Positions 10,945 to 17,379 of a stretch of 25,079 bases of DNA are shown one piece after another. The position numbers were made by a program, and so were the translations under genes. Source of the DNA: a virus (taxonomy: Duplodnaviria > Heunggongvirae > Uroviricota > Caudoviricetes); IMG/VR virus record IMGVR_UViG_2671180296_000013, positions 1 to 25,079 of that record; one strand, 5' to 3'. Each line of letters opens with the position of its first letter. Within the stretch, counting starts at the first letter, position 1. The notes beneath the pieces are model-generated. The model worked only from the letters and a program-made list of their open reading frames with translations, searched no databases and was not told the origin of the DNA.

Positions 10945-11100
10945 TTACTCCTCAGGTTCGTAAGCTGTGAAGACAGCGACCTCCGTCTGGCCGGTTCGGA
11001 TTCGTACCTCGCAGAGGTCTTTCCTTGTTACCAGTGCCGTCACTATGACGGTTAAACAGATGACGATCAGGGCGATTAGCATCGCCTTTTGCTGCTTCAT
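10945..11100 (-). CDS. hok: Hok/Gef-family type I toxin (51 aa); the overlapping upstream frame to 11157 is mok-like
   Basis: MKQQKAMLIALIVICLTVIVTALVTRKDLCEVRIRTGQTEVAVFTAYEPEE is a single transmembrane helix plus periplasmic tail and matches Hok/RelF-type peptides as I recall them. Confidence 0.8.
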   Translation of the reverse strand: MKQQKAMLIALIVICLTVIVTALVTRKDLCEVRIRTGQTEVAVFTAYEPEE

Positions 11101-11274
11101 AGCCTGCTTCTCCTTGACCTTTCGGTCCGTAAGAGGCAATCTATATGTGACGAGCATATAGGGGCCTCACTTTGTACTGACCCCAAAAAGTTGGACAGTT
11201 AAACACGAGGCAGATAGCCTCAAGCACCCGCAGCAATTCTACTTAACTCTGCCGTTACAGCAAACCGTTTTCGC

Positions 11275-11298
11275 CCGATATGGGAATTCCCATATCGG
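11275..11298. repeat. Perfect 24-bp palindrome ccgatatgggaattcccatatcgg in the hok upstream region
   Basis: Directly read; exactly self-complementary and centred on GAATTC. Confidence 0.8.
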
Positions 11299-11382
11299 AA
11301 TGAATTCAGTTCACCTGGCGAGGCTTAGCGTACAATTTTTTCCGTTTTGTGAGCTGCCCCTACATGCCGCTGGCGCGGCATC

Positions 11383-11414
11383 CGGAAAAAGAATCCACGT
11401 CCTGAAGGACGTGG
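11383..11414 (-). terminator. Intrinsic terminator (minus strand) immediately after the binding-protein gene
   Basis: Stem ccacgtcc (11395-11402) pairs with ggacgtgg (11407-11414), loop tgaa; on the minus strand it is followed by ATTCTTTTT. Confidence 0.6.
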
Positions 11415-11420
11415 AGGATG

Positions 11421-12179
11421 TCAAGTGCCTTTCCTGGTCCAGCCATATTTTTTGAATGCAGGCGCCGCTTCATCGGTTTGTAGCCATTCTGCAAATCGAC
11501 GGGTTTCATCATTTGCATCCTGACGTACTGTAATGTTCATATCACGCCATATCACGTAGTCTGGCGCTATTTCCACGACATCACCAATTTCTGGATTACT
11601 GGCTGCCCAGTCAGCCCAGGTTATCCAGACATCTGCTTCAGGCTGATTCTCAAGAGCCTTACGTGCAGTTCCGCTGTTGGGCGCATATAAAATAATATTT
11701 TTTCGGATTGCGGCGACAGTTTCTATATTCCCTTTACGTCCGGCAATATCTTCCCAGACGCCAGTGCCTGATGTATTACTGGTACCACCACCATCATTAA
11801 CAATTACGCCAATCCCGGGTCTGGTCAGGTCGTCAATACTCCGGATATTTTTAGGATTACCTTTCTTTACCAATAAAATACTTTTTCGCAGATAAAGAGG
11901 CTGAATATCTTTTTCACTGAAGCTGTCTTTATGGTCCCGAATGATAGCCAGAGCAGATTGTTCTGATGCGCCAAACAAGATATCTGCATTTTTTTTGGCA
12001 TCTTCATTCCATTTGTTCTGTGGGCCGTAATGAACGTTCACTATAATACCTGTTTTTTCGGCATAAAGTTTGGCTGCATCAAGCAAGGCTGTATGCGGGC
12101 CACCAGGACCATACAGATTGATATCAGCATAAGCAGCAGAAGACAGGAATATTAAAAAACCTGCCATTATGTTCCTCAT
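11421..12179 (-). CDS. Secreted periplasmic substrate-binding protein, ModA-like (molybdate/tungstate-type PBP fold), orphan
   Basis: 252 aa with signal peptide MRNIMAGFLIFLSSAAYA; overall layout and C-terminal FKKYGWT resemble ModA-type binding proteins. AGGAG SD, own terminator, AT-rich upstream region, and no adjacent permease or ATPase genes. Confidence 0.55.
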   Translation of the reverse strand: MRNIMAGFLIFLSSAAYADINLYGPGGPHTALLDAAKLYAEKTGIIVNVHYGPQNKWNEDAKKNADILFGASEQSALAIIRDHKDSFSEKDIQPLYLRKSILLVKKGNPKNIRSIDDLTRPGIGVIVNDGGGTSNTSGTGVWEDIAGRKGNIETVAAIRKNIILYAPNSGTARKALENQPEADVWITWADWAASNPEIGDVVEIAPDYVIWRDMNITVRQDANDETRRFAEWLQTDEAAPAFKKYGWTRKGT

Positions 12180-13817: not shown

Positions 13818-14279
13818 TCAAACAAAACCAGCCGTTTTCCGGCGTTCATACTCCTGTTTCAGCAACTCAATTGGCGTTGGTCCCGACGGGCGTTTTGGTG
13901 CCGCCAGCTGTCGCCGGACTGGCGGAATGCTCAGGCCGTTACCAACATGCTTTGCCCATTTCGTCAGTTGCCGTTCTGCAAGCCGTTTTAACTCCCCTTC
14001 GGTCATCTGGCGCTCAATCCCCTTTGAACGCATCTCGAGGCAAATGTGATACAGCACAGGCTGAGACCACGGGTATTTATCGCTTCCGTCGTATCGCCAG
14101 GACTCGTTGCGCCAGCGGCGGTACTCCTCCATCACAGCATCCACCGTCAGACCGAATGGATTGGCTCCGCTTTCCGAAATCAGCGCCACAAACTCAGCCA
14201 GGTCCGGAGGCCATGTTTCACCCGCCCGGCAGCGGTCCATGCACTGGCGGCAGACCTGCCGGATTTGCTGCTCAGTCAT
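13818..14279 (-). CDS. Replication protein P-like (helicase-loader family); start uncertain, longer forms from 14360 or 14483 would overlap the O-like gene
   Basis: ...TEQQIRQVCRQ...PPDLAEFVALI...DKYPWSQPVLYHICLEMRSKG... resembles the central and C-terminal parts of lambda P. The ATG at 14279 overlaps the O-like stop (GATGACTGA). Confidence 0.55.
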   Translation of the reverse strand: MTEQQIRQVCRQCMDRCRAGETWPPDLAEFVALISESGANPFGLTVDAVMEEYRRWRNESWRYDGSDKYPWSQPVLYHICLEMRSKGIERQMTEGELKRLAERQLTKWAKHVGNGLSIPPVRRQLAAPKRPSGPTPIELLKQEYERRKTAGFV

Positions 14280-15396
14280 CGCGCCAATCTGTGCAATCCA
14301 GAGCTTCGATGGTGCGGCCCCGTTCTTCCGGGTCCAGCGGTTCGAATAAACCTCCCCCATGAGTTCCCACAGCTTCCACGCCGTTTCCGTCGCTGATAAA
14401 TCCGTTTTCACGTTCCCACTGCTCACGTGCTGCCCGAATTTCCTGAACTGCCCGTGATGCGGTGCCACCTGGTGCTGCTGCATAGTTTGCCCCCTTGCTG
14501 ACTGGTTTAACCTGCGCCCTGACGTGATTTACGTGACGGGCGAATTTCTGCTCCCACTGAACCTGCGTGAAAACTTTCCCCTCCGCTGCCCAGTAGTCCC
14601 GGAAGGCGGCAAGTTCAGCAGGTGTAAATTCCGGCTCAGGAAGAGCCATCCCCCACAACGCAGCCCGTCGTCGAAAATCCCGTGACGGATACCAGCTATC
14701 GCTCATCGGGAATTTCCCGATGGGTTCGCTCAGGCCTTCCAGGTAATCAGGTTCCGCTGTCTGCAACGGCACGCCATTTGCCTCACTGGCCGGAGCACTC
14801 TCGCGCACGCGCGCGTTATGTGTGGGGTTTATATATCTGTTATCTGTTATCTGGATACCGCATGACAAAGCGTTAGCCTTATCCTTAGGCTTATCCTCAG
14901 GCAAAGGGATTGCCTTATCGAATGCCATCCCCAAAGCCTCAGAAACCCCGTAGGACGCGGCTCTCAGCGATTCCCTGGCCTCCCATTTGAGAGGGCAATC
15001 AGGAATTAAAGCGAATGCCTTTGCCCAAGATTTAATGACATTTATCGAGTTTGGCGGATTGTGTTTCGCAGCATTCGGGAGCCAAAAAACTCTGGCTTTG
15101 ATATCTGCTTTCACCATGCCAAGATTCATGGCTTCGCCTAAGGCTAAGTCAAAGGCTTCGATATCCCACCCCAACTCTTCAGCCATTGCTGCCCGCCCGG
15201 CTTTAAACAACCCAGGAATAATCCCGGTAAATGGACTGGTCAGCAGATAAATAAACAAACTCTGTCCACTTGGAGGCAGAGGAGATAACGCCCTAAATTT
15301 GGGATCATCCCATATCGTTATTTTTACCTTGCGATAAGGCTCATTGTTTGCCTTAGTTTTTGGCATGGGATTTGGCATGTTTTTAGCCTTAACCAT
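14272..15396 (-). CDS. Replication initiation protein (O-like functional position), contains iteron-like repeats
   Basis: Large ORF directly upstream of and coupled to the P-like gene; ATG at 15396 with GAGG SD (the track start at 15450 is a TTG); internal direct repeats at 14830-14920. Confidence 0.5.
   Translation of the reverse strand: MVKAKNMPNPMPKTKANNEPYRKVKITIWDDPKFRALSPLPPSGQSLFIYLLTSPFTGIIPGLFKAGRAAMAEELGWDIEAFDLALGEAMNLGMVKADIKARVFWLPNAAKHNPPNSINVIKSWAKAFALIPDCPLKWEARESLRAASYGVSEALGMAFDKAIPLPEDKPKDKANALSCGIQITDNRYINPTHNARVRESAPASEANGVPLQTAEPDYLEGLSEPIGKFPMSDSWYPSRDFRRRAALWGMALPEPEFTPAELAAFRDYWAAEGKVFTQVQWEQKFARHVNHVRAQVKPVSKGANYAAAPGGTASRAVQEIRAAREQWERENGFISDGNGVEAVGTHGGGLFEPLDPEERGRTIEALDCTDWRDD
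14830..14920. repeat. Iteron-like direct repeats (ATCTGTT x2-3; GCCTTATCC-type x3 with a DnaA-box-like TTATCCTCA) inside the O-like gene; candidate origin
   Basis: atctgttatctgttatctgg at 14835-14855; gccttatcc, ggcttatcc and gccttatcg at 14874-14918; an adjacent GC-rich then AT-rich stretch. Confidence 0.4.
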
Positions 15397-15475
15397 AATT
15401 GCCTCATCTGGTGTCGAACCTTCCTCCGGATATAATCTGTGATTCCCCAATCAACAGAACCAAAGGAGGTTCGAC

Positions 15476-15931
15476 ATGTCTTTAATGGCTGTTTGCCAAA
15501 AAATTAAAAATCACATGCGCACTGTGTACAAAATTAACCAGCACGACCACGACATGGTTAACCTGGTAACATGCAGGGCTATAGTTCTCACCCGCTTCCA
15601 CCTGATTCTTACAAATCACTCACGGGATTCTCTCCTGAGCCCCAGTAGCTATGATTCGCTGGCGAGATTGCTATACCAGGCAAGTGAAAAACGTATTACT
15701 GATCCCTTATCTGTTTCCCCTGTCCTTGCTCTTCACATTCTGGAAGACGCTCTCTATGCCCCCCATCAGGAATGCGACTATCAATTTCTTGAAGCTGAGA
15801 AATCAATGAGAGAATGGTTCGTTGAATATCGCGAACGGCAGCAAAAGTTATCCTCAGAGTATTCAGAACTTCCGCAACTTCGCTGGAGTGATCTTCCGAA
15901 CGAATTATTTGCTCTGACCCCAGAAAATTAA
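15476..15931 (+). CDS. Hypothetical protein (151 aa) on the opposite strand to the early-right operon
   Basis: ATG at 15476 preceded by AAGGAGG 6 nt upstream; overlaps minus ORF 15696..16109 by 236 nt, so both may not be real. Confidence 0.35.
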   Translation: MSLMAVCQKIKNHMRTVYKINQHDHDMVNLVTCRAIVLTRFHLILTNHSRDSLLSPSSYDSLARLLYQASEKRITDPLSVSPVLALHILEDALYAPHQECDYQFLEAEKSMREWFVEYRERQQKLSSEYSELPQLRWSDLPNELFALTPEN

Positions 15932-16109
15932 TTCTTGGGGATAAATCGTCCATAACTGAACGCAGGCTAAGTTCTGCGCTCTGAAGCTTCCGAACCGAAG
16001 TTTCTGTACCCCAACCCGCAATTTCTGCATTTTTTGCAAGTTTCAGGATCCAGTCTCGTAGTTCGCCGGGAGTAAGATTTCCAGCATTGATAAACGGTTT
16101 GATTTTCAT
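15696..16109 (-). CDS. Hypothetical protein (137 aa) downstream of ydaT in the early-right operon
   Basis: ATG at 16109, 20 nt after the ydaT stop and on the operon strand; conflicts with plus ORF 15476..15931. Confidence 0.35.
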   Translation of the reverse strand: MKIKPFINAGNLTPGELRDWILKLAKNAEIAGWGTETSVRKLQSAELSLRSVMDDLSPRINFLGSEQIIRSEDHSSEVAEVLNTLRITFAAVRDIQRTILSLISQLQEIDSRIPDGGHRERLPECEEQGQGKQIRDQ

Positions 16110-16128: not shown

Positions 16129-16551
16129 TTAATGAACAACAACAGAATCGCCGGACGAACCGCCGCCGCTGAAATGTGCTTTCCGGTAAACGGCCTGGAC
16201 TGCATCATCATGCGCATCAATTGCCGTACTCAACGCTTCCTGCGCCGCCAGTAATGCACGGCGTTCCAGGGTATCGAAGATGCAGAGTCGGTGACGCAGC
16301 TCGCGCGGAAGAATTGCCAGAACCGCAGGGATCAGTTTCTGAATTTTTTCCCTTTGCGCTTTCGTTTCACCTTTCAACCAACGGTGATAGATATTCTGCT
16401 GATTGTTCCAGTCCTTGCCTGGTACCAGGGGCAATTCGCCGCCCCCTTGGCGCAGATATTCTTCAGTAATTGCATTGGCTACCCATGCCTGCCCTTTTTC
16501 AGCGGCCAGGGCTAACAGCACTGATTCAATGTGCTCATGCCTGATTTTCAT
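16129..16551 (-). CDS. ydaT: YdaT-like protein (Rac prophage YdaT family; CII-position)
   Basis: MKIRHEHIESVLLALAAEKGQAWVANAITEEYLRQGGGELPLVPGKDWNNQQNIYHRWLKGETK... closely matches Rac YdaT as I recall it; 140 aa. Confidence 0.8.
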   Translation of the reverse strand: MKIRHEHIESVLLALAAEKGQAWVANAITEEYLRQGGGELPLVPGKDWNNQQNIYHRWLKGETKAQREKIQKLIPAVLAILPRELRHRLCIFDTLERRALLAAQEALSTAIDAHDDAVQAVYRKAHFSGGGSSGDSVVVH

Positions 16552-16810
16552 GAATCAACTCCTGTGCATTTTGTGTGTTAGCTTTACATCCAACAGGTAA
16601 ACCATCGGTCGGATTCGGGTAGATATCAGGCCGAAGTTCATGAGGTGTAACCTCGAAATTCGTAGCCTCCGCGATACGCAATACCTTTTCGGGGCTTAAC
16701 TGACTACGGCCAGTAGCTACGAGGCTAATCATCGATTGCGAACAACCAGCGAGTACGGCCAAACAAGACTGTCGTACACGATTTTTTTTCAAATATTCAT
16801 CTAATGTCAT
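16535..16810 (-). CDS. ydaS: Cro-like HTH regulator (YdaS-like)
   Basis: MTLDEYLKKNRVRQSCLAVLAGCSQSMISLVATGRSQ is an HTH; ATG at 16810 with AAGGTGA SD; divergent from the repressor gene. Confidence 0.7.
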   Translation of the reverse strand: MTLDEYLKKNRVRQSCLAVLAGCSQSMISLVATGRSQLSPEKVLRIAEATNFEVTPHELRPDIYPNPTDGLPVGCKANTQNAQELIHENQA

Positions 16811-16914
16811 AAGGGTCACCTTAGTAATGCCTGTCAAAATATTAACTATATTAATTTAAATGATCAATACCTATATCAGTTTGAGTTTATGAGTTGTGTT
16901 CATAAGATGGTGGT
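16811..16914. promoter_or_regulatory. Divergent promoter/operator region between the cro-like and repressor genes
   Basis: AT-rich 104-bp intergenic region with palindrome-like TTAACTATATTAA and tgatcaa motifs. Position is by analogy to lambda OR; sites not mapped. Confidence 0.45.
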
Positions 16915-17379
16915 ATGAGAAGAAAACGCGAAGAAATCGCATCGCCAGAAGCTACGCAGCGTCTGCGCGCAGTCTGGGATGCCAAAAAAAGAGAGCTCAA
17001 ACTGACTCAGGAGCTTGCTGCTGAGCTAATGGGCTTTGAGACTCAATCCACAGTTAGCCACTATCTCAACGGAAAGGCTCCACTAAACACTGATGCAGCA
17101 TTAAAATTCGCTGTATTACTAAGAGTTAAGCCTGAAGAGTTGAGGCCTGATTTAGCTGATCTGATGAATTACGTCCGTTCCTCAGGAACTTATGACGAAA
17201 GTTTCGAAGGCGAAGGTTGGCGGATGGTTAACAAGCAACAAGCTGATTTACTGGATCTTTTTGAAATCCTTCCCGAATCAGAAAAAGCAAAACTAATCGA
17301 AAGGCTTAAAGGTCAAAATGAACTCTACAAAGAAGCGTTTGAAAAGATGCTGGCAGCTCAGAAACGCATGAAGAAATAG
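16915..17379 (+). CDS. Prophage repressor (CI-like, RacR-position)
   Basis: 154 aa with HTH LTQELAAELMGFETQSTVSHYLNGK; divergent from the cro-like gene and followed by a strong terminator. Confidence 0.65.
   Translation: MRRKREEIASPEATQRLRAVWDAKKRELKLTQELAAELMGFETQSTVSHYLNGKAPLNTDAALKFAVLLRVKPEELRPDLADLMNYVRSSGTYDESFEGEGWRMVNKQQADLLDLFEILPESEKAKLIERLKGQNELYKEAFEKMLAAQKRMKK

Follow-up and report, generated by a model that had tools for sequence, protein, structure and literature searches.

Codon-constrained repeats inside a prophage initiator gene as a candidate iteron-type replication origin

IMG/VR virus record IMGVR_UViG_2671180296_000013 (Caudoviricetes), of which positions 1 to 25,079 are considered here and are referred to as the window (25,079 nucleotides, nt), includes a lambdoid prophage that resembles Rac and PPompW and reads on the minus strand. 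We propose that the short repeats within the replication-initiator gene of this prophage are part of its replication origin, an iteron origin that lies within its own initiator's coding sequence, and we put the probability of this reading at about 0.65. The proposal builds on the repeats themselves, their conservation at the DNA level, their linkage to one type of N-terminal domain (N-domain), the folds of the initiator domains and a minimum of duplex stability beside the repeats, each of which the analysis establishes.

Repeats within the initiator gene

An original prediction, made from the letters of the window, had described direct repeats at this site, and all of them were found where it had placed them: ATCTGTT at 14835-14841 and again at 14842-14848, ATCTGGA at 14849-14855, GCCTTATCC at 14876-14884, GGCTTATCC at 14888-14896 and GCCTTATCG at 14912-14920. 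The GC-rich then AT-rich stretch reported beside them is present as well, with a GC fraction of 0.70 at 14780-14819 and 0.375 at 14820-14859. In gene sense the order is GATAAGGC..GATAAGCC..GATAAGGC, then CAGATAA CAGATAA CAGATAT, ATAAACCCCACACATAA and CGCGCGCGTGCGCG (Table 1). The three GCCTTATC repeats are members of a longer array with a strict period of 12 base pairs (bp), array II, whose core WWG/SCWW falls at the unit boundaries (GAG/GCTT, ATG/GCAT, AAG/GCAA, TTG/CCTG, AAG/CCTA, AAG/GCTA, TTG/TCAT). About 60% of array II had been covered by the prediction; its continuation to 14943 and two further arrays, I and 0, had been missed. The ATCTGTT repeats are the heptamer run CAGATAA CAGATAA CAGATAT read on the reverse strand, an A/T-rich enteric variant of a (CAGGAR)n run found throughout the family, and the run together with the adjoining A/T patch (14816-14853, ~39 bp) is 33% GC.

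Tandem Repeats Finder (TRF) reports a period-7 array at 14834-14853 (score 40) and a period-12 array at 14873-14902 (score 46). These are two of the five arrays scoring at least 40 in the whole window, where dinucleotide shuffles give 0.37 +/- 0.7; the remaining ones lie at 17121-17150 (inside the cI-like gene), 20867-20914 and 6230-6251, with periods of 14, 21 and 11. The hexamer AAGSCT/AGSCTT occurs six times in 14850-15165 against 0.38 expected (~15-fold, Poisson 3e-6); no other 316-bp stretch of the window is as rich in it. GSC trinucleotides in 14854-14961 are separated by 12 nt in five pairs, by 24 in four and by 23 in one. Codon choice in array II also departs from the window background, with Lys AAG in 4/4 cases (background 0.28), Pro CCT in 3/3 (0.22) and Leu TTG in 3/3 (0.10).

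Array I has the same motif and period as array II and lies ~250-300 bp upstream of it. The winged-helix segment that it encodes, amino acids (aa) 98-122, comprises helix 3 and the wing, and the array is thus within the N-domain (initiator residues are counted from the start of the open reading frame, ORF, at 15450). It is present in every homolog among 29 aligned loci, and in other phyla it reads GAAGCCTTCnnnGAAGCCTTYnnnGAAGCCTT..AAGGGTATGGC. Array II resembles a direct duplicate of array I, since both end AAG GGTATGSC. Array 0 is found in enteric relatives only, where GAG-CCT and AAG are invariant in nine enteric representatives. The spacing of arrays 0, I and II is ~220-300 bp.

Conservation of the layout among homologs

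Around 90 relatives of the N-domain were collected by protein search, and DNA was compared in three sets: 29 genome loci (Enterobacterales, Stenotrophomonas, Burkholderiales, Rhodocyclales, Acidobacteriota, Desulfovibrio, Spirochaetales, Gemmataceae and Mesorhizobium [Rhizobiales]), 80 viral contigs obtained by protein homology, and 120 IMG/VR viral contigs obtained by DNA pattern alone (AAGSCTT three times at 12-bp spacing). The N-domain is encoded at 79 of the 120 loci found by pattern only. One layout is common to ~140 homologous loci of many phyla, from gut to soil bacteria: when phased on the run, each locus has 4-8 units of strict 12-bp period with the near-palindromic core AAG-N-CTT, a single 11-bp step occurring within the 12-bp array in one subgroup. 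The GATAAGSC units of the window are the degenerate enteric form (WWG/SCWW) of this core. On the 3' side of the array stands either a (CAGGAR)3-10 run or one of several 7-nt variants (CAGTAAA, CAGAAAG, CAGATAA, CAGGTAG, CAGGGAG, CAGGAAT), and the 12-bp array with its CAG run recurs in ~60 unique enteric linker sequences. Exact AAGSCTT reaches 11.7 per kilobase (kb) in the linker vs 0.54 per kb in the flanks. The array was present in all the homologs compared in these sets.

The N-domain type occurs in 37 of 5,426 complete E. coli genomes, where the protein is annotated as "DnaT-like ssDNA-binding domain-containing protein" (ssDNA, single-stranded DNA). The plasmid collection yielded a 47.7-kb circular phage-like element and one distant Ralstonia match, and no characterised replicon. 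The circular element, deposited as an E. coli "plasmid" (CP100067.1, p727A3-47K), lacks a typed plasmid replicon and has the initiator/P module of the window, with an N-domain identical to that of the window (100% over the 145-aa query). Probably a circular phage genome, it shows that such phage genomes occur extrachromosomally, which does not in itself locate the origin. The annotated initiator of this element is 305 aa long and begins at an internal Met, a start that cuts into the winged helix. Another close relative, PP818812.1 ("Actinobacillus phage vB_Apl-pPE4", hereafter pPE4), shares 97-99% identity with the E. coli prophage region of the window, and its stated host looks doubtful.

Constraint on DNA rather than on the peptide

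The occurrence of the motif in two codon frames was dropped as proof of DNA-level selection, since both frames can encode (K/E)-A-(F/L). Because that argument is weak, codon-position tests on phase-defined units were adopted; in these decisive tests the units were picked by phase alone and the expectation was taken from local codon usage. In one subgroup the middle codon, NCT, ends in T in 43 of 48 cases vs 7.2 expected (z 14.7), yet it encodes different amino acids because its first base varies (Ala 18, Pro 16, Thr 10, Ser 3). The other subgroup has xAA in 56/56 vs 21.3 expected, GSC in 50/53 vs 20.8 and Leu TTR in 14/14 vs 2.5. For array I the corresponding counts are 73/75 and 78/79 vs 31 and 23.5 expected, with control codons elsewhere in the domain near expectation. 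Across the nine enteric representatives, third-position conservation is 0.83 in the array and run vs 0.68 in the folded N-domain, and amino acids are less conserved in the array and run.

Variants of the run with a 7-nt unit exist in several lineages, and 7-nt runs cannot be peptide repeats. At one such locus (L146) the run reads CAGGTAG CAGGTAG CAGGGAG, each third unit being CAGGGAG exactly where TAG would fall in frame. A Gemmataceae metagenome-assembled genome (L022, 2780-2970) has a CAGGAM run in another frame (SGTGPGPGTG) within one long ORF; this alternative frame may be genuine or an assembly frameshift, and a single assembly calls for caution. A distant relative is informative too: Klebsiella phage ST13-OXA48phi12.4, whose N-domain is ~30% identical and whose partner is of DnaC type, keeps an NQEQDQEQ run and has GAAAGGGTT(T/C) units 11 bp apart, with neighbouring copies in different translation frames and GAAAGGGTT in both arrays, including the array I position. 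Among 69 variants of the Klebsiella subfamily the array is nearly invariant, and the flanks and run length vary. In a DnaD-like protein of an Exiguobacterium phage, TATCGATA occurs three times and is joined by a purine run at the same domain boundary. Because third positions are fixed while amino acids vary, and because the 11-bp motif of a relative lies in different frames, the constraint acts on DNA and not on the peptide. These comparisons of homologous loci show the repeats to be under DNA-level selection and to travel with the N-terminal domain. The motif covaries with the N-domain subfamily, which bears only indirectly on binding by the cognate initiator.

A mosaic junction at the end of the repeats

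Linkage to the N-domain is also seen in relatives with other N-domains. By Megablast, the window is homologous to the Rac-SA53 and PPompW prophages over the P gene and the initiator's C-terminal half, and this homology ends at ~14835-14856, at the end of the repeats. Both prophages have the same DnaT module joined to unrelated N-domains, DUF1376 in Rac-SA53 and HTH_36 in PPompW, and the sequence just upstream of the common TAAACCCCAC junction differs in the window, PPompW and Rac-SA53; neither prophage has the 12-bp array of the window. PPompW has ACCCAAA six times (L003, PPompW / Stx2_14040, ~2800-3003 in gene sense; spacings 89, 44, 22, 20 and 10), likely a separate iteron set. Rac-SA53 has a short 6-nt tandem repeat (AGATAC AGATAC AGATCT) and an inverted repeat, and no recurring 7-mer array upstream of the junction. 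Since these two prophages differ upstream of the junction, it is the N-domain that brings the repeats of the window with it and the C-terminal module that brings the A/T patch and GC palindrome.

Duplex stability, the initiator protein and a model

Nearest-neighbour stability was computed for 128 loci, and the least stable 25-bp windows are centred at the 3' end of the run, with a stable GC stretch after it; the minimum amounts to +2.0 standard deviations in enteric loci and +1.3 in others. A hairpin whose stem is perfect over 6 bp or more, no more than 55 nt after the run, is present in 38% of 76 non-enteric loci vs 4-5% of controls. The stems, of 6-9 bp in non-enteric loci, differ in sequence between loci, and the GC palindrome of the window sits where many non-enteric homologs have this hairpin. 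Six nt of the palindrome are missing in some close relatives (L057, L059, L061). RNA folding z-scores are inconsistent across homologs.

The initiator consists of a winged-helix N-domain (aa ~50-180), a disordered linker (aa 195-235 in the AlphaFold2 model), in whose coding part array II and the run lie, a DnaT-like domain (aa 247-313) and a conserved acidic tail. Its sole Pfam match is DnaT PF17948 (E 7e-17, aa 247-313); the N-domain matches no Pfam family even at E<5, DnaD_N and Phage_rep_org_N included. PHROG 1408, "replication initiation protein", is matched at E 7e-90, and the N-domain has weak PHROG matches to "DnaD-like helicase loader" (E 5e-13) and "replisome organizer". The NCBIfam DnaT equivalog NF002770 scores 93.5 vs a cut-off of 201, with matching residues 239-316 only. 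The lambda-P-like helicase-loader gene lies directly downstream and overlaps the 3' end of the initiator gene. The comparison with ori-lambda made in the original prediction stands as to layout, the repeats being at a two-domain boundary of a replication-initiator gene and adjoining a low-stability stretch, as ori-lambda is in O. Calling the gene O-like is apt by position and partner, but the protein has neither Phage_rep_O nor the lambda-O C-terminal domain, and Pfam, NCBIfam and PHROG alike gave no O-domain match.

At least three direct repeats about one helical turn apart and conserved as DNA, the arrangement expected of an iteron origin, are found here (12-bp period; 11-bp in relatives). 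We infer that the initiator binds the arrays, that the duplex melts beside array II and that replication starts at this site. The initiator would bind the 12-bp-period arrays, array II, probably array I, and array 0, through its N-terminal half as the presumed binding part, and initiators would build a nucleoprotein complex on roughly one helix face. The 7-nt run and A/T patch (14816-14853), the least stable duplex nearby, would open first. The DnaT-like C-domain and the conserved tail may then hold the single strands and/or dock the P-like loader, which would deliver host DnaB, and early transcription from the cro-side promoter would cross the site, as in lambda. The run may serve as an opening element or as a mere spacer, and the hairpin may act in DNA or in RNA.

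A more elaborate version of this model is offered only tentatively. It would make the gene itself the self-contained origin module of an undescribed initiator family, with array I (the DNA of helix 3 and the wing) as a binding array, array II as its duplicate at the domain boundary, and the CAGG run with the hairpin as a new opening or loader-entry element kept from Acidobacteriota to Enterobacteriaceae.

Points against an origin and alternative explanations

Several observations weigh against an iteron origin at this site. Helix 3 of the winged helix (EAFDLALGEAM) has zero basic residues, and a DNA-reading surface is not evident. Array II is degenerate in the window, where the count of exact AAGSCTT is 0, and arrays I and II could share their motif through duplication or gene conversion instead of a common binder. 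Unlike the four to six 19-bp iterons of lambda with their inverted symmetry, the units of the window measure 12 bp and have a near-palindromic core of 7 bp. In most homologs the GC content of the run is 58-67%, which is unusual for an unwinding element, and its copy number is polymorphic (3-10), so that it is possibly only a slippage-prone spacer. The GC palindrome is weak in enteric loci, with a stem of at least 6 bp in 3% of them. Finally, no model phage with this N-domain was found in the phage collection, only pPE4 and Chris1. On the subject of run length, it may be added that Klebsiella-type initiators (L238-L317) have 4-8 copies of a CAGGAW run among 86-99% identical sequences, in the manner of a microsatellite.

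Other explanations of the repeats have to be considered alongside the origin. That the arrays are sites at which the initiator or another phage protein acts in autoregulation, copy-number control or as a transcriptional roadblock, with the origin elsewhere, is unlikely in our judgement, even though the DNA-level evidence fits such sites equally well and the three arrays are separate, ~220-300 bp apart, an arrangement reminiscent of plasmid control iterons. What speaks for the origin is that the replication module showed no further repeat cluster and no further A/T-rich candidate except the cI-cro operator region, and that the run, low-stability patch and hairpin by array II resemble origin anatomy. 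Similarly low odds are given to a constraint on single-stranded nucleic acid, be it an mRNA structure regulating the translation or decay of the initiator/loader message or a single-strand initiation signal. AAGCCTT and AAGGCTT are mutually reverse-complementary, the minimum-free-energy fold of the window pairs array I with array II (z -2.5 to -2.6), and the hairpin after the run retains its pairing despite sequence change, all of which would suit this explanation.

An ordinary low-complexity peptide linker (PEDKPKDKA here, (EQ)n elsewhere), produced by replication slippage and with no function at the DNA level, would agree with the predicted disorder of the region and with the 12- and 6-nt steps by which unit number and run length vary among relatives. 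It is nonetheless very improbable and already contradicted by the present data: synonymous sites are fixed where amino acids vary, the 7-nt and 11-nt periods are read in different frames, and array I lies within a folded helix. Hardly credible is a DnaA-dependent origin with the GCCTTATCC repeats as DnaA boxes, the one element in its favour being the 8/9 match TTATCCTCA (14891-14899, plus strand) that had been put forward as a DnaA box. Matches of this quality do not exceed the chance level (the window has 11 sites with one mismatch or none vs 5.9 +/- 2.3 expected, and 0 exact boxes), TTATCCTCA is part of an array II unit, and its mismatch falls outside what we take to be the tolerated positions of the DnaA-box consensus. 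It is unconserved besides, reading TTATCCTTA in the 97%-identical phage pPE4, with nothing similar in non-enteric homologs.

Relation to known replication systems

In ori-lambda the elements follow one another as repeats, low-stability tract and palindrome, and the window has the same order. The lambda origin has a mid-O position with iterons and an AT-rich tract (PMC7466680). As in lambda and Stx phages, the proposed origin lies mid-gene, in the interdomain coding part, with initiator repeats followed by a low-stability tract; likewise a P-type loader gene is downstream, added repeats lengthen the protein and the type of repeat is tied to the N-terminal domain (PMC7466680). The systems differ in that the protein of the window has no Phage_rep_O (PF04492) or Phg_2220_C (PF09524) domain and its C-domain is DnaT-like, in that a 6- or 7-nt CAG run takes the place of the ~40-bp AT tract of lambda, and in the extra arrays within the coding region of the DNA-binding domain.

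Replisome-organizer or DnaD-like phage initiators with the origin in their own gene, of the SPP1 G38P-oriL type, form another point of comparison. The N-domain has its PHROG matches to proteins of this type, and the Exiguobacterium DnaD protein shows the layout of palindromic repeats and a purine run at the domain boundary; Pfam DnaD_N and Phage_rep_org_N are unmatched, and the partner in the window is P-like and not a DnaB/DnaI-type loader. An N-terminal domain of helix-turn-helix (HTH) type followed by a DnaT C-domain, adjoining a lambda-P homologue, is also the arrangement of DopC/DopE and other O-like proteins with a DnaT C-domain (PMC5509034); DopC, however, is chromosomal with an HTH_36 N-domain, while the N-domain of the window is of another family and has repeats. 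The authors who described DopC found no iterons (PMC5509034). Unlike primosomal DnaT of E. coli, the protein of the window is without the DnaT N-terminal domain. The repC-internal origin of repABC plasmids is similarly reported to lie within the coding sequence of an initiator, the protein being unrelated (PMC3155836).

That an origin can lie within the gene of its initiator, its repeats being matched to the N-terminal domain, is a classical principle. The literature on oriJ/Rac, DnaT-like prophage proteins, Eru replication types and initiator-gene origins contained no description of the origin of this family. The initiator family of the window has no Pfam N-domain, no model phage and no described origin in the literature searched, and its repeat anatomy is unlike that of lambda. 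The repeats provide a concrete and mutable origin candidate for widespread, unstudied replication modules of temperate phages, carried by prophages of E. coli, Salmonella, Citrobacter, Serratia and Klebsiella and by many environmental lineages. They supply a DNA signature for the module (AAGSCTT at 12-bp spacing, then a CAG run) and design rules for synonymous changes by which origin function is testable with the protein unaltered. They also demonstrate how strongly a cis-acting element can affect the choice of codons within a gene.

Feature coordinates and gene context

Table 1. Features of the replication region in the window, with positions counted from its first letter.
Feature	Position	Strand	Basis or remark
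cI/DicA-like repressor gene	16915-17379	+	
YdaS/cro-like gene	16535-16837		
YdaT-like gene	16129-16551		
Initiator ORF, 392 codons	14272-15450	-	holds the reported repeats
Initiator gene, 374 aa	14272-15396	-	probable start ATG 15396
Array 0, 12-bp units AAGGCTAAAAAC ATGCCAAATCCC ATGCCAAAAACT AAGGCAAACAAT GAGCCTTATCGC AAGGTA	15322-15393	-	N-terminal tail coding region
Array I, 12-bp units GAA/GCCTTTGACTTA/GCCTTAGGCGAA/GCCATGAATCTT/GGCATGG...	15085-15159	-	TRF period-12 array 15130-15160; alignment of 29 loci
Array II, ~seven 12-bp units	14854-14943	-	proposed initiator-binding iterons
Heptamer run CAGATAA CAGATAA CAGATAT	14833-14853	-	TRF, homolog runs; proposed first-melting or spacer element
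A/T patch and mosaic junction ATAAACCCCACACATAA	14816-14832	-	Megablast end points, four-way alignment, junction search
GC-rich alternating palindrome CGCGCGCGTGCGCG, 5-bp stem CGCGC/GCGCG	14802-14815		the GC-rich stretch of the original prediction
DnaT-like ssDNA-binding domain coding region	14512-14712	-	
Lambda-P-like helicase-loader gene	ORF 13818-14483 (221 aa); start uncertain: 14360, or 14279 in other records	-	Pfam PF06992, E 1e-16; PHROG 109, 33198
DUF1627 gene	after the P-like gene in gene order		

The initiator ORF is open as far as TTG 15450, GAGG precedes ATG 15396, and the annotation of pPE4 has the initiator start equivalent to 15396. The overlap of the initiator and P-like ORFs (14272-14483) is out of frame. 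Pfam homology to P begins at residue 60 of the 221-aa ORF, and that of PHROG 33198 exactly at Met42 (ATG 14360); with a start at 14360 the loader gene overlaps the conserved tail of the initiator by 89 nt, and with one at 14279 the overlap is 8 nt. PHROG 15931 covers both the initiator and the P-like protein, as though they were fused in some annotations.

A perfect 10-bp inverted repeat, TGTCGAACCT/AGGTTCGACA (15412-15421 and 15467-15476, 45 nt apart), is located upstream of ATG 15396, in the extension of the ORF to 15450 and at the start of a divergent 151-aa ORF. The latter (15476-15931, plus strand) overlaps a 137-aa minus-strand ORF (15696-16109, PHROG 37051). Downstream of the replication module, at 10945-12179, lie a paa/adfO adherence-factor gene and a hok/gef-like small ORF, as in PPompW prophages.

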